6,015 bases of DNA from positions 1 to 6,015 of the IMG/VR virus record IMGVR_UViG_3300020029_000084; one strand, given 5' to 3'. Under the pieces are notes generated by a model that searched no databases, was not told where the DNA came from, and was given only the letters and a program-made list of their open reading frames with translations. Source of the stretch: a virus. The position numbers were made by a program, and so were the translations under genes. This document shows, piece after piece, positions 1 through 6,015 of this stretch. The stretch's first letter is position 1; each line of letters starts with the position of its first letter.

Positions 1-65
1 TCGCCAAAAATACAGTCAAAAACGCCGGTAACGCCAGGAATGACGCGAATAACAAGTTGTTTCAT
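1..65 (-). CDS. Partial duplicate of the 5' end of the 97-aa hypothetical gene (same sequence as 5895-5959); runs off the left edge
   Basis: The ATG (reverse complement of cat at 63-65) corresponds to the start at 5957-5959 of ORF 5666-5959. It lies inside the terminal redundancy. Confidence 0.5.
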   Translation of the reverse strand, partial: MKQLVIRVIPGVTGVFDCIFG

Positions 66-121
66 AAATATAAAAAGTTAAAGGTTATAAAATTTACAAA
101 TCTCGACCCATTTACGGGAAA
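1..121. repeat. Left copy of the 121-nt terminal redundancy (identical to 5895-6015), marking a circular genome of 5,894 nt
   Basis: Base-by-base comparison shows 1-121 equals 5895-6015. Genes run across the junction. Confidence 0.95.
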
Positions 122-335
122 GCTCATGCCAGTAGGACTTACCTTCGGCAGCATCATACCAGGGGAATGCAGAAGCTATGTACTGCTTGGGCGGAGTCCG
201 ACTAAAAAAGTCGAAGGGTCCGAAAAGAGGAAGGGCCTCATCGCGATTCTTAAAAAACGAATCAAGAGCCGAATTTCTGGCGAGAAAAAGAAGGAATAAA
301 TCCTTGACCATGAAAGAATCAGAAATGCGTGTCAT
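78..335 (-). CDS. Hypothetical protein, 85 aa (ORFan)
   Basis: Open frame on the strand that carries every recognisable gene. Its stop is 12 nt before the start of the next minus-strand gene across the circular junction. The leader is A/T-rich like the other genes. I recognise no motif. Confidence 0.45.
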   Translation of the reverse strand: MTRISDSFMVKDLFLLFLARNSALDSFFKNRDEALPLFGPFDFFSRTPPKQYIASAFPWYDAAEGKSYWHELSRKWVEICKFYNL

Positions 336-352
336 AAAAAAAGTTTATTGGT

Positions 353-436
353 TAAGCAGCGGTGCCGCACCCTCACTTCGTTCGGGTCGGTTCTCCGAAC
401 CGCGAAATGCGTCACCTCGCTACAATGGTGTAAACA
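353..436. repeat. Copy A of the 84-bp perfect direct repeat; GC-rich structured element in the VP2-to-85-aa intergenic region
   Basis: Identical at 84/84 positions to 1916-1999. Predicted fold: outer stem 358-369 with 408-421, hairpin cggttc-tcc-gaaccg at 388-402, and a short hairpin ccc/ggg at 370-386. It lies 16 nt downstream of the VP2 stop and 17 nt upstream of the 85-aa ORF start in coding direction. Confidence 0.9.
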
Positions 437-442
437 AAAGTA
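435..442 (-). promoter_or_regulatory. Candidate Bacteroidota-type -7 promoter box (TACTTTTG, fits TAnnTTTG) at the upstream edge of repeat copy A
   Basis: The minus strand reads TACTTTTG. I found no convincing -33 TTTG at the proper spacing, and copy B has no equivalent box. Confidence 0.15.
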
Positions 443-452
443 ATGAAAAAAA

Positions 453-1700
453 TCAATACTTCATAGGGATGTTCTTATATTCACCAATTTTAACTCCTTT
501 TCGAACACCATCACTGTCATAATATTCTTCAAAGGAAGTCCTGGTACCACCAACGGAACCTCGGGATCTGGTACCCACACGCATGGCAGCGGCAGCGGCA
601 GCACCACCAACAACCTTTTCGGTAACACCCATGAGCAGGGGATGCTTACGCTGCCAGTTCATAAAACCTTCAGCGGCAACACCTTGTTCTCCGACAGTGT
701 ATCGAAGGCCGTTGAGATAAAGGGCAATATCCTTACCGGTCATCTTCTTCGTCTTACCCGTAGGCTCACCTTTCTCGTTAACTTCCTGCACATCAATAGG
801 GGTAGTCCAGTTCACATCAAACCACTCCAGTAAATCCTTACGCTCAACGTCCATCAACCTGGTAGAGGCACCAAGATTATTGGCAGAGGCAATTAAATAC
901 GTAAGATTGGCAGCGGCCATTCGCTCCATAAGCGGAATTTCGGCATCATTGATGGCACGGAGGCGTCGATTCTCTTCAGCGATATTGGCACACTCTCCGA
1001 CAATCTTCAACCAATTCTGGGTAGCAATAAGATCAGCGTATTTATTCTGGGCTTCCTGCCACGCCGTTGCAGCATCAAGATTGGCCGCAAGGGCCTTCTT
1101 TGATTTGACACCAGCTTCAGAAAGTTGTACAGCCAGATCAAAAGCTTCCGCATAACGATCGGGGGACTGAGTCTGGTTTTCGATATTCTGAGCCTGGGCA
1201 CGATCAAGACGAGCAGCCGCATTGTTGCGTTCACGCTCAGAGGCAGTAAGCATATTCTGACCAAGGGACGTCATATCAAGAGGACCAGCACCAGGGAGAC
1301 CGGGGCCGCCGGAAGGTCCGGACGCGCCGACAGAACCGGCGGAACCACCAGGCATGGTAGCACTGACGCCTACTCCGGAAGATCCAAGAACAGCAGCAGG
1401 AGTAACACCTGCAGCATTGTATCGATCAAACACCGCTGAGGGGTCGTTGTACTTGTTTTCATAATCAAATTGTTTTTGCCAATTTCCGTATTCATACTCA
1501 GCCTGTTTGGCCATCTGCTCAAGAGCATACTTCTGCTGAAGAGCCATCTGTTTCTTCATATACTTCCATTGGCGTCGGGCATTCATGCCACCAAAGAGCT
1601 GACCGATAGCGCCGGAAATAAGACCGGAAGCGCCAGTCTGAGCAGCACCTTGGTATAACTGTCTGCCGAAAGAACCGGCAGCGGTAAAGGGAACAGGCAT
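453..1700 (-). CDS. VP2: Microviridae VP2-like DNA pilot / minor capsid protein, 415 aa
   Basis: The size and architecture are typical of gokusho/alpa VP2. It has a Gly/Ala-rich N-terminus, a Q/K/E-rich helical segment, an AGVTP motif resembling the conserved AG(L/I)NP, a Gly/Ser/Pro low-complexity linker, a long Ala/Gln/Asn-rich coiled-coil-like region, and a basic C-terminus. It lies in the structural module of a genome that has clear VP1 and VP4 genes. Confidence 0.78.
   Translation of the reverse strand: MPVPFTAAGSFGRQLYQGAAQTGASGLISGAIGQLFGGMNARRQWKYMKKQMALQQKYALEQMAKQAEYEYGNWQKQFDYENKYNDPSAVFDRYNAAGVTPAAVLGSSGVGVSATMPGGSAGSVGASGPSGGPGLPGAGPLDMTSLGQNMLTASERERNNAAARLDRAQAQNIENQTQSPDRYAEAFDLAVQLSEAGVKSKKALAANLDAATAWQEAQNKYADLIATQNWLKIVGECANIAEENRRLRAINDAEIPLMERMAAANLTYLIASANNLGASTRLMDVERKDLLEWFDVNWTTPIDVQEVNEKGEPTGKTKKMTGKDIALYLNGLRYTVGEQGVAAEGFMNWQRKHPLLMGVTEKVVGGAAAAAAMRVGTRSRGSVGGTRTSFEEYYDSDGVRKGVKIGEYKNIPMKY
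585..602. repeat. Tandem hexanucleotide (ggcagc)x3 encoding the Ala6 run in the VP2 C-terminal region
   Basis: Read directly. The minus strand reads gct gcc gct gcc gct gcc, giving AAAAAA in the VP2 frame. Confidence 0.9.
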
Positions 1701-1702
1701 AA

Positions 1703-1900
1703 TTAAGGACGTTTAAAGTTACCTATCTGTTCGTAAGTAATGGTAGTCCGGGTAGTATCTCCGGACTTGACAGAGGATGCCGACTGGACAACGTAATGTC
1801 TCGCCGTACACGATCCAAGGAAAAAAGCCGCAAGGGCGGCCACGATTGCTGTAACCAAAGTCCAAAACTTCTTGGAGTGAAGTACATCTTTGAAAGTCAT
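1703..1900 (-). CDS. Small putative lipoprotein, 65 aa (signal peptide plus lipobox FLGS-C31)
   Basis: It has a basic n-region (K4, K10, K11), a hydrophobic h-region (WTLVTAIVAALAAFFLG), and Cys31 preceded by L-G-S, which fits the bacterial lipoprotein signal pattern. Its stop is 2 nt before the VP2 ATG, so the two are probably co-expressed. Confidence 0.6.
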   Translation of the reverse strand: MTFKDVLHSKKFWTLVTAIVAALAAFFLGSCTARHYVVQSASSVKSGDTTRTTITYEQIGNFKRP

Positions 1901-1915
1901 GATAAATTATTTTAA

Positions 1916-1999
1916 TAAGCAGCGGTGCCGCACCCTCACTTCGTTCGGGTCGGTTCTCCGAACCGCGAAATGCGTCACCTCGCTACAATGGTGTAAACA
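1916..1999. repeat. Copy B of the 84-bp perfect direct repeat, 15 nt upstream of the lipoprotein ORF start
   Basis: Identical at 84/84 positions to 353-436, at an offset of 1563 nt. The same predicted fold applies, with the core at 1921-1984 and the hairpin at 1951-1965. Confidence 0.9.
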
Positions 2000-2019
2000 G
2001 TTAAAGAACGATAGAAAAA

Positions 2020-2093
2020 TGCGCGGCCTCTCCGGCAGTCGCTACCAATAAACCTCTAACCATTCACACACTCTTGTCAGAGGGGTCCGCGCA
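2020..2093. other. Long-range inverted repeat / stem enclosing about 47 nt in the major noncoding region
   Basis: tgcgcggcctct (2020-2031) pairs with agagg-ggt-ccgcgca (2079-2093), giving 12 bp with a 3-nt bulge. An inner ctct/agag mini-hairpin lies at 2071-2082 and competes for the agag (2079-2082) used by the outer stem, so the two are alternatives. Confidence 0.55.
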
Positions 2094-2122
2094 CGTAGCA
2101 TATATCATCAAGTAAAGAGTAC

Positions 2123-2146
2123 ACTATTTTTCTTCAGAAAGATAGT
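2123..2146. other. A/T-rich hairpin (9-bp stem with 1 mismatch, 6-nt loop)
   Basis: actattttt (2123-2131) pairs with aaagatagt (2138-2146). The loop is cttcag. Confidence 0.45.
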
Positions 2147-2150
2147 ATTT

Positions 2151-2191
2151 AAGGGGTGAGTGGAGACATAAATGCCTCACACTCACCTCTT
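2151..2191 (-). terminator. Long stem-loop 21 nt downstream of the 103-aa ORF stop; candidate terminator or RNA/ssDNA structural element
   Basis: aaggggtgagtg (2151-2162) pairs with cactcacctctt (2180-2191), matching at 11 of 12 positions. Further pairing inside the loop is possible (gag/ctc, ca/tg). No classical U-tract follows on the coding strand, so terminator function is uncertain. Confidence 0.35.
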
Positions 2192-2211
2192 TGCGGGTGG
2201 CCAGAACGGGG

Positions 2212-2523
2212 TCACTTACCATCACCTTCGGTGCTGGTGGCTGCAGACTCCGTCTGCCCGTTCTTACCCGAGTCAAGAGCAGAATCAATAAGTTCCTGTC
2301 CTACTTCAAGACCGTCAAACTTATCCATACGAGAGAAGCTATTAGGGTCGAAGTCGAGTTCGGGATTAAACCTCTCACCTTTATCCCAATCCGATTGGGA
2401 AGCTTCAATATCGGGACGACCGGGAAGAATATCAACCGAACCGGAACCATCGAGGACAGACATGATACGCTGACCACGCGAGACATACTGCGGAGGATCT
2501 TCAAGTAACCAAACAAGTGCCAT
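2212..2523 (-). CDS. Hypothetical acidic protein, 103 aa; candidate internal scaffolding protein (VP3-like by position and composition only)
   Basis: It starts 12 nt after the VP1 stop, on the same strand and in the same frame register. It is strongly acidic (about 21 D/E against about 9 K/R) and looks disordered, with G/S/D/E-rich stretches. No motif can be recognised by eye. Confidence 0.55.
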   Translation of the reverse strand: MALVWLLEDPPQYVSRGQRIMSVLDGSGSVDILPGRPDIEASQSDWDKGERFNPELDFDPNSFSRMDKFDGLEVGQELIDSALDSGKNGQTESAATSTEGDGK

Positions 2524-2535
2524 AATATCAACAAA

Positions 2536-4344
2536 TTAACGGTTGGACAAACGGGTTGCGAAAGTTTTATTAACAAGGTTCTTCTTACGAACGCTATACG
2601 ACATATTCACGAAGAAGTTGTCCTCAACCTTCGAAGAAAAGGGAGAATTGACCTGGGCCATATCGACAAAAAGATACGGATAAGTAAGGAACGAACCAGT
2701 ACGAGTCGTGGTATTAAAAGAACGCTGCTGGACCCAATAATTGTACAAAGTCATCGGAATGTTAGGACCGGACTTAGCGGCCAACATGCCGAGAACTTCG
2801 TCGTAAGAACTACGGAACTCATTATAACAGGGTTCGAGAGAAATGGTTGAAGGAGTGCCACCTCCAGCAATAGAATAACGCTGAAAGCGATAATCCGGTA
2901 CATCTTGATAGCCAATATCGTTATAGATCGGATTGAAATAATCAGCACCTTGATAATTAAGATAATCGGGGCGAACTTCCGACCAGTAATAGACAGGTCG
3001 AATACTCAACATATCGATAAGATAACCAGGTTCCTTAAAATAATAACTCTGGGAACGACCAAGCGGAGCATTAAAAGCAATAGCACCACCCTGCTGACCA
3101 AGGGGATTACCACCTTCTTGGAAATTGTTGACACCAGATTGATTCATAACAACCTGGACATTTACAGTCTGCGAAGCACTAAACAACAACTTCGGGCGAT
3201 CAACATGCTCAATCTTGGAAGCAAAAAAGGTCTCAAGCCAATCCGAGTAACGATTACCTCCGGCTCCAAGCAAATCCTTGTATTCCTGCATGCGAGAAGC
3301 AATAGCAAGTTGAGGTATGGTGGTGATACCGGTCATGGAAACACTATCCCCGGAAGCAATAGGCAGCATTCGCGAAAAACGATCGGGATTCGAAGGAACC
3401 ACAGCCATGGGGTGAGCCAAAGTAACAGCGGACCGAAATTTATAAGAAACAGTAGTTGTAACGAAGCTATTAGAAGTCTGGCTGGTAGGAACCGAATTAA
3501 ACTCCTCTTTCAAAGCATCAAGAGAAGCGACAGGGTAGCCATCACCCGAAGCGGCGCCGGCATCAACCAAGTCACTGTAAACGATCTGAGCAGCAAGATT
3601 AAACCGATTATAAGTGTTGTTGGGAGTTGCCACAGCCGAGGGGTAAAACTGAGATTCAAAAAAAGCGTCCAAATACTGAAGATTGCAAAAGCGCTGTGTA
3701 AAATAAGAAGGGTCCGGACTAGCTACCCAATACATAGAATTGTCCGACTCATCACGATGAATATACCAAGAGCCAGGCCAAGCAATCGAGTACAAAGACC
3801 ACTGACTGTAGCCATAATAATTGCGAACAATGTCCCAGTAAGCCAAATAAGAATCGGCATTGACCCAACGAGCCGAAGAGACGCCGGTGTCAAGAGAAAT
3901 AGAAGACGCCCAACCATCGTTACTAAGAAACTGGTTATAACCCATGGAGGCGCGAAGCCAATAAAGCAGCGAATTGGGATACGAAAAATGCTCAGAAGTG
4001 ACATTAGTCTCTTCGGAAGTTGAAGACCATGCAACAGGAATCCAATTAAGCGACACATCATTCATATCGAATTTACTGCTATTCGTCCTCATCTCCGGAT
4101 GATACAGCTGCATGGGCACCCAAAAACGATGAAGCCGCACCGTGTAAGGATTAAACGTCGGTACAGCCAGGGGATTCGAACGAACATCAATGCCCTGGGC
4201 GATCGTCACCCGATCACGAGCATTAATGAAGTCGATCCGGACAGGATACAGGATTCCGGGAGTACAGGTAAATGCCTTGGACTCCGGAACATCATACCGC
4301 GAATAACCATTCACGGCATGAGAAATAAAAGATTGTCTTGCCAT
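2536..4344 (-). CDS. VP1: Microviridae major capsid protein VP1 (F-like jelly-roll), 602 aa
   Basis: It is the largest ORF. The N-terminal region (..F.CTPG.LYPV..DFINARDR..I..GIDVRSNPL..P.FNPY.V.LHRFWVP..L) has the layout of the conserved microvirus capsid N-terminus. The protein is rich in Y/W/N/S as in gokusho/alpa capsids and lies directly downstream of the Rep gene. Confidence 0.92.
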   Translation of the reverse strand: MARQSFISHAVNGYSRYDVPESKAFTCTPGILYPVRIDFINARDRVTIAQGIDVRSNPLAVPTFNPYTVRLHRFWVPMQLYHPEMRTNSSKFDMNDVSLNWIPVAWSSTSEETNVTSEHFSYPNSLLYWLRASMGYNQFLSNDGWASSISLDTGVSSARWVNADSYLAYWDIVRNYYGYSQWSLYSIAWPGSWYIHRDESDNSMYWVASPDPSYFTQRFCNLQYLDAFFESQFYPSAVATPNNTYNRFNLAAQIVYSDLVDAGAASGDGYPVASLDALKEEFNSVPTSQTSNSFVTTTVSYKFRSAVTLAHPMAVVPSNPDRFSRMLPIASGDSVSMTGITTIPQLAIASRMQEYKDLLGAGGNRYSDWLETFFASKIEHVDRPKLLFSASQTVNVQVVMNQSGVNNFQEGGNPLGQQGGAIAFNAPLGRSQSYYFKEPGYLIDMLSIRPVYYWSEVRPDYLNYQGADYFNPIYNDIGYQDVPDYRFQRYSIAGGGTPSTISLEPCYNEFRSSYDEVLGMLAAKSGPNIPMTLYNYWVQQRSFNTTTRTGSFLTYPYLFVDMAQVNSPFSSKVEDNFFVNMSYSVRKKNLVNKTFATRLSNR

Positions 4345-4353
4345 ATGAAATAT

Positions 4354-5421
4354 TTAAGTTAATGAAAGGCCGTAAAAATCATACCACGACTCAATAATAT
4401 CCCGATCGAGCCAGGCAGGAGGATCAATACAGGGAACAGGGCCGGCAGAAACAAATTCCCGATATTTTTTCATCTCCCATGAATATGTTTCTCTAAAGGA
4501 TAAGGCGGAAGCCGGAAGAAACCTTTTAACACAAAGGTTAACAACATGACGAACCAAAGAAGAACGGCTAAAGCGTGAATAAGCATCAGCAGAGCGAACC
4601 GCGCGAATGATCTGCGCGTCCTGTTGAAGATACCGATTGTAGTATCGAGGAATGGCATAAGAATACTTAATACCACTCTTAAGATCCAGATAATCCCAGG
4701 ACGAACAAGTAGCAGAAGGAGCAGGGCGGATGCCAAGATAATCACCAACGCCAGCAGATACGAATTTTCTCGTATAACGGCGATGTTCGAGGAGGTTAGC
4801 CAAAGGAACAGATTTTCCATCTACGGTAACAGTTTTATCAGCAATTTGCTCGGGGTCAAACGCAATTTGTTTAGTAACGTATTTAACAACATATCGTGCA
4901 CGCTTATGCGTGCCTTTTGCAAGCCATATAAATCCAAGATCACCAACAGCTTCCCGGATATCATTATACAGGACATCGGTTCCGAAAAGAAAACCATGAA
5001 AGTGAAGACGCGGCTCCGAGCCTATTTCGGGATGGGTACCGAACTCCTGGAAAAACGCATGTTTAAAGGAATGTCCGATTTTGTGCCGCACACGCTCGTT
5101 CCACCGGCGGATAAAGAGAGTCGGATTCCGGAGTGCATCATCGTAATACTTGGGATCAATGGTTATGGTTATAAAAATGGCCTGGCGGTGTTCTGCCTTA
5201 CAACGAGCCAACTCACGCTCAAGACGGACAAACCAATCATTCCGGAGACGACGAAGACAGTCCTCGCATTTGCCGCAAGGTACCATGAGCCACTGACGAG
5301 AGATATCCCAGGGAGCCAGGGCAAGCTGAGATTTCTGGTAGTCAGAAACACGGGAACCGACGATATTCCTGCGATCAAAATACCGACGGTTCCGAATCCA
5401 TATGGGATGAGAGCAAGCCAT
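4354..5421 (-). CDS. VP4: Microviridae replication initiation protein VP4 (HUH rolling-circle endonuclease), 355 aa
   Basis: It has an N-terminal Cys cluster (C3, then PCGKCEDC at residues 48-55). RCR motif I is FITITI (nt 5158-5175), motif II is HFHGFLF (nt 4984-5004), and motif III is YVVKYVTK (nt 4870-4893). I verified motifs I and II by back-translating the nucleotides. Confidence 0.93.
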   Translation of the reverse strand: MACSHPIWIRNRRYFDRRNIVGSRVSDYQKSQLALAPWDISRQWLMVPCGKCEDCLRRLRNDWFVRLERELARCKAEHRQAIFITITIDPKYYDDALRNPTLFIRRWNERVRHKIGHSFKHAFFQEFGTHPEIGSEPRLHFHGFLFGTDVLYNDIREAVGDLGFIWLAKGTHKRARYVVKYVTKQIAFDPEQIADKTVTVDGKSVPLANLLEHRRYTRKFVSAGVGDYLGIRPAPSATCSSWDYLDLKSGIKYSYAIPRYYNRYLQQDAQIIRAVRSADAYSRFSRSSLVRHVVNLCVKRFLPASALSFRETYSWEMKKYREFVSAGPVPCIDPPAWLDRDIIESWYDFYGLSLT

Positions 5422-5630
5422 CAGAAAAGAGACTGAAGTAAATCAATTTTAAGATGAGGGTAGACGCGGGAAATACGTTCCAGGTAAGCGGAGGCCGAAT
5501 CATAGTCGACAAACCAGGCGAAGACACGACGAACCCGGTTGCGGTAAAATCCGACCGAATAGCGGAGGGGAATACCCTCCACTACCGGACAAGACCTCGG
5601 ATAACTGAAATTTTCCATACTAAAGAACAT
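5421..5630 (-). CDS. Hypothetical small basic protein, 69 aa, translationally coupled to VP4
   Basis: Its stop TGA overlaps the VP4 ATG by one base (TGATG at 5419-5423). The protein is Arg-rich. An alternative start exists at Met5. No recognisable motif. Confidence 0.5.
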   Translation of the reverse strand: MFFSMENFSYPRSCPVVEGIPLRYSVGFYRNRVRRVFAWFVDYDSASAYLERISRVYPHLKIDLLQSLF

Positions 5631-5665
5631 TTCCGAGAACGGGACGCCTCACAACACGGGCACCG

Positions 5666-5959
5666 TTACGACTCTTTTTCTTCTTTCGACTCATAATCGG
5701 GAAAACTAATAACAATGAAAGACTGATACAATGCCAGACGAGCGCCATGATCAAGAGCTGTACGAACAACCGGGGTCAGATTCGAAGTCCGGATATAGGC
5801 AGTGGTACCCAAAAGATCATCAACGCAAATGAAGCCGGAAAGACCCGGATCAAGCTGATCAAAAGAACAAGGGACGAACTGACCATTATCAAGATCGCCA
5901 AAAATACAGTCAAAAACGCCGGTAACGCCAGGAATGACGCGAATAACAAGTTGTTTCAT
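5666..5959 (-). CDS. Hypothetical protein, 97 aa (ORFan) with an acidic/Lys-rich C-terminal tail
   Basis: Open frame on the coding strand. It starts 12 nt after the stop of the 85-aa ORF across the circular junction. Its composition is ordinary and globular-like. No recognisable motif. Confidence 0.55.
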   Translation of the reverse strand: MKQLVIRVIPGVTGVFDCIFGDLDNGQFVPCSFDQLDPGLSGFICVDDLLGTTAYIRTSNLTPVVRTALDHGARLALYQSFIVISFPDYESKEEKES

Positions 5960-6015
5960 AAATATAAAAAGTTAAAGGTTATAAAATTTACAAATCTCGA
6001 CCCATTTACGGGAAA
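5895..6015. repeat. Right copy of the 121-nt terminal redundancy (identical to 1-121). It also contains the 3' end of the 85-aa ORF (5972-6015, same sequence as 78-121).
   Basis: Base-by-base identity with 1-121. Confidence 0.95.

Follow-up and report, generated by a model that had tools for sequence, protein, structure and literature searches.

In single-stranded DNA (ssDNA) phages and in rolling-circle plasmids, single-strand initiation signals work on the viral strand and take the form of cassettes, and an optional, patchy presence is typical of the single-strand origins (sso) of rolling-circle plasmids. Here we describe an 84-nt element, named E, that occurs twice in a microvirus genome recorded as IMG/VR entry IMGVR_UViG_3300020029_000084 (positions 1 to 6,015; this whole stretch of 6,015 nt is referred to as the window). 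Because the packaged strand of Microviridae has the sense of the mRNA, the minus strand of the window is the viral strand. E is a real, conserved, optional and, in this genome, duplicated structured cassette with a putative function. None of the database records annotates E, and our literature searches found no earlier description of it.

Intergenic structures that start the complementary strand are already known in Microviridae, namely the oric of G4, the n′ site of phiX174 and a set of predicted hairpins (PMC9865509). E has no sequence in common with any of them and shares only the loop signature of mini-hairpin DNA, a structure formed only by GNA loops (PMC13037366). Mini-hairpins of the form GCGNAGC melt at 70–76 °C and are poorly bound by single-stranded DNA-binding protein (SSB); mini-hairpins occur at the complementary-strand priming sites or origins of the phages G4, St-1 and alpha3, and the hairpin promoters of phage N4 carry GGA and GAA loops (PMC13037366).

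The primase-dependent oric of G4, St-1 and alpha3 resembles what we predict for E in that it belongs to a microvirus, lies between genes, acts on the viral strand and comprises clustered hairpins, including an SSB-resistant GNA/GNNA mini-hairpin (PMC13037366). The intergenic, viral-strand-only character of the G4 type is found in E through its position, its orientation, its strand-biased predicted fold and its G-T pairs. E differs in showing no sequence similarity to these origins, in forming one three-way junction instead of three tandem hairpins, in having no conserved 5′-CTG-3′ of the kind that lies 3′ of hairpin I, and in being optional and here duplicated. The hosts also differ: G4, St-1 and alpha3 infect Enterobacteria, whereas the phages with E, for which priming is a proposal, probably infect Bacteroidota.

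The rolling-circle origins ssoA, ssoU, ssoT and ssoW and the ssiA and ssiB of plasmid RSF1010 are, like E, structured, orientation-dependent, dispensable, exchanged and sometimes present twice, and ssiA shares with E the C(GNA)G type of mini-hairpin (CCGAAGG; PMC13037366). Unlike the sso, E has no RSB/CS-6 organisation and resides in a phage, not a plasmid. The CS-6 motif of ssoA-type origins, TAGCGT/A in a terminal loop, was rejected for lack of conservation; in the window, TAGCGA lies at the base of the structure, outside a loop, and it reads CAGCGA or TGGCGA in relatives. Origins of the ssoA type, at roughly 150–300 nt, are also much longer than E.

The n′ (PriA) site of phiX174 is a single hairpin of about 55 nt without similarity to E. 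As an intergenic microvirus hairpin it is comparable to E, and it is used on the viral strand for complementary-strand synthesis (PMC9865509). The hairpins of reekeekee- and roodoodoo-microviruses (PMC9865509) are, like E, computational finds with nucleotide conservation and compensatory substitutions, proposed but not proven to start the complementary strand; they differ from E in clade, sequence and architecture, are reported to be conserved within their clades, and no duplication has been described for them.

The repeated element and its fold

Positions 353–436 and 1916–1999 are identical at 84 of 84 positions (100%) and spaced 1,563 nt apart. The second-longest exact repeat in the 5,894-nt genome unit measures 12 nt, which excludes a chance origin of the 84-nt repeat. 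Both copies have the same orientation and lie on the viral strand: copy A occupies the gap between VP2 and an 85-aa open reading frame (ORF; site A), and copy B the gap between a conserved intergenic core and a 65-aa lipoprotein-like ORF (site B). An earlier sequence-only reading of this stretch had given the same identity and spacing and the correct gaps, which are 16 nt from the VP2 stop to the start of copy A, 17 nt from its end to the ATG of the 85-aa ORF, and 15 nt from the end of copy B to the ATG of the 65-aa ORF. The reported richness in G+C likewise holds, with 57% in E and 66% in its three-way junction against a genome mean of 47% and 17–27% in the flanks; the flank of copy B on the core side, at 43%, is unlike the others. 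The parts of the repeat are as follows.

1916–1999, minus strand: copy B of E, at the ancestral position (site B); 100% repeat, 116 bits with the covariance model, homologues at the same site.
353–436, minus strand: copy A of E (site A); 100% repeat, between the VP2 stop and the ATG of the 85-aa ORF.
1924–1979, minus strand: three-way junction of copy B; stem P1 GGTGACGCA/TGCGGCACC, P2 at 1951–1965, P3 at 1933–1949.
361–416, minus strand: three-way junction of copy A; P2 at 388–402, P3 at 370–386, sequence identical to copy B.
1980–1999 (copy B) and 417–436 (copy A), minus strand: unpaired 5′ tail of E, TGTTTACACCATTGTAGCGA, 20 nt.
435–442, minus strand: match TACTTTTG to TAnnTTTG (Bacteroidota −7 promoter box), overlapping the left edge of copy A.

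Read along the viral strand, E consists of the tail, P1, the junction ATTTCG, P2, one base and P3. The first 10 nt of the tail (TGTTTACACC) are invariant in all 17 aligned copies. P1 contains an A-G mismatch, which is a C-G pair in MG945813, P2 reads CGGTTC-GGA-GAACCG, and P3 reads CCC-GA-AC-GAA-GT-GA-GGG with tandem G-A mismatches. The outer stem, the 6-bp hairpin and the ccc/ggg hairpin proposed from the letters of this genome alone are borne out by covariation among the 17 homologous copies: 97% of cells are paired, and four pairs show double-sided compensatory changes. The values for pairing and covariation were reached by 0–1 of 500 shuffles, and sliding the 3′ partners by 1–3 columns reduced them to about zero. 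Compensatory changes affect two pairs of P1 (U-A to C-G and A-U to G-C), P2 (with G-C, A-U, C-G and G-U pair types) and P3 (A-U to G-C).

Two further structural claims of the sequence-only reading did not survive. E had been said to fold the same way on either strand, whereas the viral (minus) strand folds better, with z-scores of −3.1 under DNA and about −2.3 under RNA parameters compared with −2.05 and −0.76 for the complementary (plus) strand. G-T pairs, seen in 12 copies at a single position of P0 and in L062 (relatives are given by labels of this form) at a single position of P2, fit the minus strand only, since the other strand would have A-C mismatches there. The structure thus appears to be specific to the viral strand. 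For the competing pairings that had suggested a switch, no compensatory change was seen; 4 of the 17 sequences disrupt them, and in these the changes are compensated in the P2 hairpin instead. A pairing of the 5′ CACC with the GGTG of P1 was also rejected, since L002 and L040, which differ in P1, show the compensating change at the 3′ partner and nowhere else.

Both apical loops of E have the form C(GNA)G. The P2 loop is GGA in 17 of 17 copies and the P3 loop is GAA, or GTA in L001 and L041, so that within E only the N of the GNA loop varies. The heptamer at the P3 apex is exactly GCGAAGC in L003 and GCGTAGC in L001. At the level of sequence, E thereby has the G-N-A triloop, the C-G closing pair and the short GC stem that characterise mini-hairpin DNA.

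Distribution in the clade and proposed copying into site A

About 30 related gut microviruses carry E, each in a single copy and invariably at site B. They include Dulem virus 225, MG945170 and MG945813 in GenBank (one homologous copy each), as well as IMG/VR genomes and one JGI contig, a scan of JGI metagenomes having yielded just one further carrier. Among 80 clade genomes retrieved via the 103-aa protein, E is present in about one quarter, always single and always at the position of copy B; about three quarters of the clade cleanly lack it. Counted by locus, about 20 of about 90 in the clade carry E, all at site B. A covariance model built from the 17 copies and searched against 468 kb of clade DNA revealed no diverged or extra copies; the window alone has two. 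L097, L105, L113 and L114 seemed to hold two copies as well, but this reflects the terminal overlaps of their circular contigs.

Where E is missing, the 135-nt intergenic core is followed immediately by an AT-rich leader of 12–20 nt and then the ATG, so that E amounts to a clean insertion or deletion of about 80–95 nt at site B. Neighbour-joining trees of the 900 nt upstream and of the 700 nt downstream both show the carriers scattered, which implies repeated gain, loss or recombination of E. Mean pairwise identity reaches 94% in E, against 90% in the intergenic core and 74% in adjacent coding DNA, so E would seem to be either under strong constraint or recently spread. The E of the window is 96% identical to that of the distant L004 and L005, compared with 92.5% for its closest relative, L002. 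As E shows, the little noncoding sequence that these phages have is modular, and its exchange does not depend on that of the genes.

The concern that the 84-mer might be a common host repeat or a contaminant was refuted: 185,579 GTDB species genomes gave four matches, which is the level of chance, and these agree with E only inside the 22-nt search pattern, the remainder of E being unmatched. All matches outside GTDB are microviruses of this clade. E is present in related microviruses with compensatory substitutions in the proposed stems.

No relative has E at site A, where a short AT-rich intergenic region is found instead, and this position is unique to the window genome. Flanking E on either side, the window agrees with the empty site of L009, and the nucleotides shared at the junctions are just TG (left) and TTA (right). 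At its left end the duplicated segment stops exactly where the insertion or deletion at site B does, and at its right end the two differ by no more than a few nucleotides, from which we conclude that E behaves as a unit. A recent duplication had been among the explanations first offered, and it is supported: two copies exist only in this genome, and they are identical, compared with 4–10% divergence between genomes. The whole unit was probably copied from site B into the gap between VP2 and the 85-aa ORF in the same orientation, possibly by microhomology-mediated recombination or template switching. A scar left by the acquisition of a lipoprotein and VP2 module is not supported, as that module sits at an unchanged position in relatives, whether these have E solely at site B or lack it. 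Recombination between the two copies would be lethal through the loss of the lipoprotein ORF and VP2; the rarity of such duplications may have this cause.

Candidate functions of E

The sequence-only reading had offered four roles for the repeat, namely a start structure for the complementary strand, a leader or 3′-end RNA element, a small noncoding RNA or protein-binding site, and a recombination scar. We tentatively favour the first, that E could be an accessory ssDNA signal for starting complementary-strand synthesis, because its structure is confined to the viral strand, its two C(GNA)G loops are special to DNA, it is present or absent like a cassette at variable intergenic sites, and at least one such module is found in every genome. 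The last point comes from a count, over 25 full-length genomes of the clade, of C(GNA)G hairpins whose stem has 4 bp or more. Every genome has at least one, and in L096, L104 and L110 the hairpin of E is the sole one found. The viral strand holds 60 of these hairpins and the complementary strand 11 (about fivefold, mostly intergenic), a ratio drawn from related genomes and not from independent events. They fall into several unrelated modules at different sites, E being one of them.

On this proposal, E would act as folded ssDNA on the packaged, coding-sense strand, where the GC-rich three-way junction would hold out two very stable C(GNA)G mini-hairpins beside the invariant single-stranded 5′ tail. 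After genome entry the structure would remain free of SSB and could offer the host priming machinery (primase or RNA polymerase) an additional place at which to enter or start when the complementary strand is made. E would then be a portable, optional single-strand origin cassette of about 80 nt.

Besides the relatedness of the genomes counted, several observations weigh against this proposal. E is absent from about three quarters of the clade and therefore is not the essential origin; the core or other modules must suffice there. The triplet CTG, at which the Escherichia coli primase starts, is found 3′ of P1 only in the window (GCTGC), most relatives having GTAGC and L003 TCCCT. The alignment is shallow (94% identity), so that few events underlie its covariation. 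Because the mRNA has the sense of the viral strand, strand specificity and covariation fit a role as RNA equally well, and the position of the copies 15–17 nt upstream of ORF starts, with copy A abutting a TAnnTTTG box, suits an mRNA leader.

A wider version of the initiation proposal, which we hold to be rather unlikely, is that E and the unrelated GNA modules at four intergenic sites are interchangeable portable complementary-strand origins that move between genomes and regions, at least one being needed per genome. If so, the window would capture a cassette just after intragenomic copying and hold the first mobile single-strand origin in a phage, and these modules would be the first sequence-defined candidates for ssDNA recognition by the priming enzymes of Bacteroidota. 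Microviruses are among the most abundant phages of animal guts, and E offers a compact, conserved, sequence-defined candidate for a complementary-strand start outside the phiX174/G4 group. Natural controls exist in genomes with zero, one or two copies, in compensatory variants and in sibling modules elsewhere. Modular noncoding bases also matter for the annotation, classification and engineering of gut microviruses.

The main rival, in our assessment somewhat unlikely, is a role of E as RNA, in which it would be an intercistronic or 5′-leader structure of a polycistronic mRNA, providing nuclease protection or a processing site and tuning expression of the ORF whose start follows after 15–25 nt (at site A the 85-aa ORF, at site B the lipoprotein together with VP2). 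Such an element would resemble repetitive extragenic palindromic (REP) sequences and bacterial interspersed mosaic elements (BIME) or the mRNA-stabilising hairpins of phiX174, which are likewise short, GC-rich, repeated, structured and placed between genes in sense orientation. REP sequences, unlike E, are simple imperfect palindromes of host chromosomes, present in hundreds of copies and mobilised by REP-associated tyrosine transposases (RAYT), whereas E is a three-way junction found in phage genomes only.

All copies and homologues of E are sense-oriented, with an ATG 22–26 nt from the 3′ end of P1, yet this spacing is that of the AT-rich leader also present in genomes without E. Copy A begins 16 nt past the VP2 stop and directly after the TAnnTTTG box, and relatives carry TATATTTG or TATGTTTG in the intergenic region corresponding to site A. 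That box, however, has no −33 TTTG at the right spacing, and TAnnTTTG is not above chance, with three distinct matches in the genome including TACTTTTG. Around E it occurs only at the junction of copy A with its flank, the two-box Bacteroidota promoter pattern gave no match, and E contains no sigma-70-like promoter.

Covariation and G-U pairs suit RNA as well as DNA, and the RNA fold has a z-score of −2.25, but the minimum-energy RNA fold relies on pairings that covariation contradicts. The core upstream of E closes with a GC stem and then ATTTTTCT, resembling a leaky terminator. P1 is followed by GCTGCTTA without a U-tract, and no site resembling an intrinsic terminator was found at either copy. 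Stable RNA hairpins typically have GNRA or UNCG tetraloops. The C(GNA)G triloops of E, on the other hand, are a mark of stable DNA mini-hairpins (PMC13037366) and not of stable RNA hairpins. Rfam cmscan of the whole window at an E-value of ≤ 10 returned three weak matches elsewhere and none in E, and ARAGORN predicted no tRNA or transfer-messenger RNA gene. Should the RNA role be true after all, E would count as a new element of the leader or stabiliser type, in organisms that manage without Shine-Dalgarno sequences.

It is improbable that E has no function for the phage and is a selfish or neutral GC-rich insert, spread among co-infecting microviruses by recombination through the highly conserved core, easily lost by slippage and copied here by chance template switching. 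This would account for the patchy presence on both flanking trees, the clean presence or absence at one site, the mere 2–3 nt shared at the site A junctions, and the closer match of the window E to L004 and L005 (96%) than to L002 (92.5%). A neutral insert should decay, however, and E is the best conserved part (94%), with invariant unpaired positions and compensatory changes. The tightly limited genome size of microviruses also counts against a functionless insert. E does not look like a miniature inverted-repeat transposable element or insertion sequence: its ends, TGTTTACA... and ...GCTGCTTA, are not inverted repeats, and no consistent target-site duplication flanks copy A or copy B. No copies occur outside the clade or in host genomes.

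Still less probable is that E binds a phage or host protein, as DNA or RNA, in a role other than priming, such as packaging or condensation, an accessory site for Rep, or a decoy for ssDNA-sensing anti-phage defence. Sequence-specific recognition is suggested by the invariance of the unpaired tail TGTTTACACC, by the junction ATTTCG and by the bases of the loops, and E adjoins the core with its presumably phiX174 nick-site-like ACTTGAT motif; yet E is optional, matches no known motif and has no candidate binding protein that co-varies with it, the flanking genes differing among carriers.

Finally, we judge it very improbable that the second copy is an assembly or amplification chimera with no molecule carrying E at both sites. 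In favour of a chimera, the source is a metagenomic contig, exact-protein look-ups with the 85-aa, 65-aa and 103-aa ORFs found no other assembly of this genome, and the site A copy is unique among about 30 genomes with E. Against it, all four junctions must exist in reads, so that E at site A must be real in some genome, the 121-nt terminal overlap suggests a k-mer of about 121 and hence single k-mers spanning each 84-nt copy with its flanks, and on the site B side the gene order of L002 is kept all the way from VP2 across E to VP1.

Genome context and other structured modules

The window is a circular microvirus genome of 5,894 nt with an assembly overlap at its ends (bases 1–121 = 5895–6015). 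The length of this terminal direct repeat, 121 nt, hints at the assembler k-mer size and exceeds that of the 84-nt repeat. All plausible genes lie on the minus strand.

5959–5666, minus strand: 97-aa ORF.
5630–5421, minus strand: 69-aa ORF.
5421–4354, minus strand: Rep (VP4).
4344–2536, minus strand: major capsid protein VP1.
2523–2212, minus strand: 103-aa ORF.
2223–2257, minus strand: C(GNA)G mini-hairpins in the 3′ end of the 103-aa ORF, GCAGAC-GGA-GTCTGC (2243–2257) and CACC-GAA-GGTG (2223–2233).
2001–2136, minus strand: intergenic core (about 135 nt) with E attached; contains CTTTACTTGATGATATATGC, followed by the closed domain GCGCGG...CCGCGC and then ATTTTTCTATCGTTCTTTAA.
1900–1703, minus strand: 65-aa lipoprotein-like ORF, directly downstream of copy B; relatives have homologues.
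1700–453, minus strand: VP2 (DNA pilot protein), between copies A and B of E.
335–78, minus strand: 85-aa ORF, directly downstream of copy A; weak homologues, same position in relatives.

A Shine-Dalgarno-like motif precedes none of the eight ORFs of the window, the closest relatives of the phage come from mammalian faeces, and TAnnTTTG boxes are present in an intergenic region of relatives; for these reasons the host of the clade is probably a member of the Bacteroidota.

The intergenic core has about 90% identity in all 81 distinct relatives examined, far above that of coding DNA, and folds as a domain separate from E. Its GCGCGG...CCGCGC domain has covarying inner stems, CCTCT/AGAGG and CCTTC/GAAGG, and a GNRA-like loop. 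In most relatives the core starts at the codons for the C-terminal SEEK-stop of the 103-aa ORF homologue, and it ends in ATTTTTCT. Its segment CTTTACTTGAyGATATATGC (with ACTTGAT), compared by eye, presumably resembles the nick region of the phiX174 origin, ACTTG^ATATT. A dif/Xer-like site in the core was considered as well, likewise by eye. The core is a candidate viral-strand origin, leaky terminator or both. Between the core and the lipoprotein ATG, L053 (~60 nt) and L090 (~13 nt) hold inserts other than E, and site B may be an insertion hotspot.

Several C(GNA)G modules unrelated to E were seen in the clade. Within the 103-aa ORF, L002 and L009 have GCAGGC-GAA-GCCTGC in place of the hairpin listed above at 2243–2257, which amounts to a compensatory stem change together with a changed loop N. 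A hairpin with an 8-bp stem, GGTGAGTG...CACTCACC, lies at window positions 2155–2187. A second noncoding region that is conserved and structured, about 190 nt long, precedes the homologue of the 69-aa ORF in most genomes (about 30 loci) and lies at viral-strand coordinates ~1930–2110 in L004. It contains a three-way junction of GGAGSYCGA, GACGC-GNA-GCGTC (N = A, G or C), CNGCC-GTTA-GGCNG and TCGRSC, whose stems covary, and in addition CAC-GAA-GTG and a hairpin GCGCTCGAAAG...CTTTCGAAGCGC. The window does not have this second module, its gap at 5631–5665 measuring just 35 nt, but has E twice. In L003 and L008 the place before the 69-aa ORF homologue is taken by two other hairpins, and MG945170 (L002) has a GNA module between VP4 and VP1 (~1945–2040).

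At site A of Dulem virus 225 (L001), the intergenic region is 283 nt long (3834–4116), with a predicted fold of −87 kcal/mol, and contains a 190-nt structured insert with GCGTAGC and GTCC-GAA-GGAC that is unrelated to E. In the Eubacterium sp. metagenome-assembled genome contig JAFRWY010000126.1 (L014), a chance match to the search pattern, five tandem hairpins occur at reverse-complement positions ~3125–3224, all with C-GAA-G triloops (for example ACCGC-CGAAG-GCGGT, TCTGTG-CGAAG-CACAGA and CATCTG-CGAAG-CAGATG); they are intergenic, upstream of a gene, and likewise unrelated to E.

The 103-aa ORF of the window, L002 and L009 ends about 75 nt short of the SEEK-stop terminus conserved in most relatives. 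A 54-aa ORF in another frame (2124–2288, minus strand) terminates in LSEEK-stop, and the C-terminus of the 103-aa ORF seems to be shifted or truncated in this subclade.

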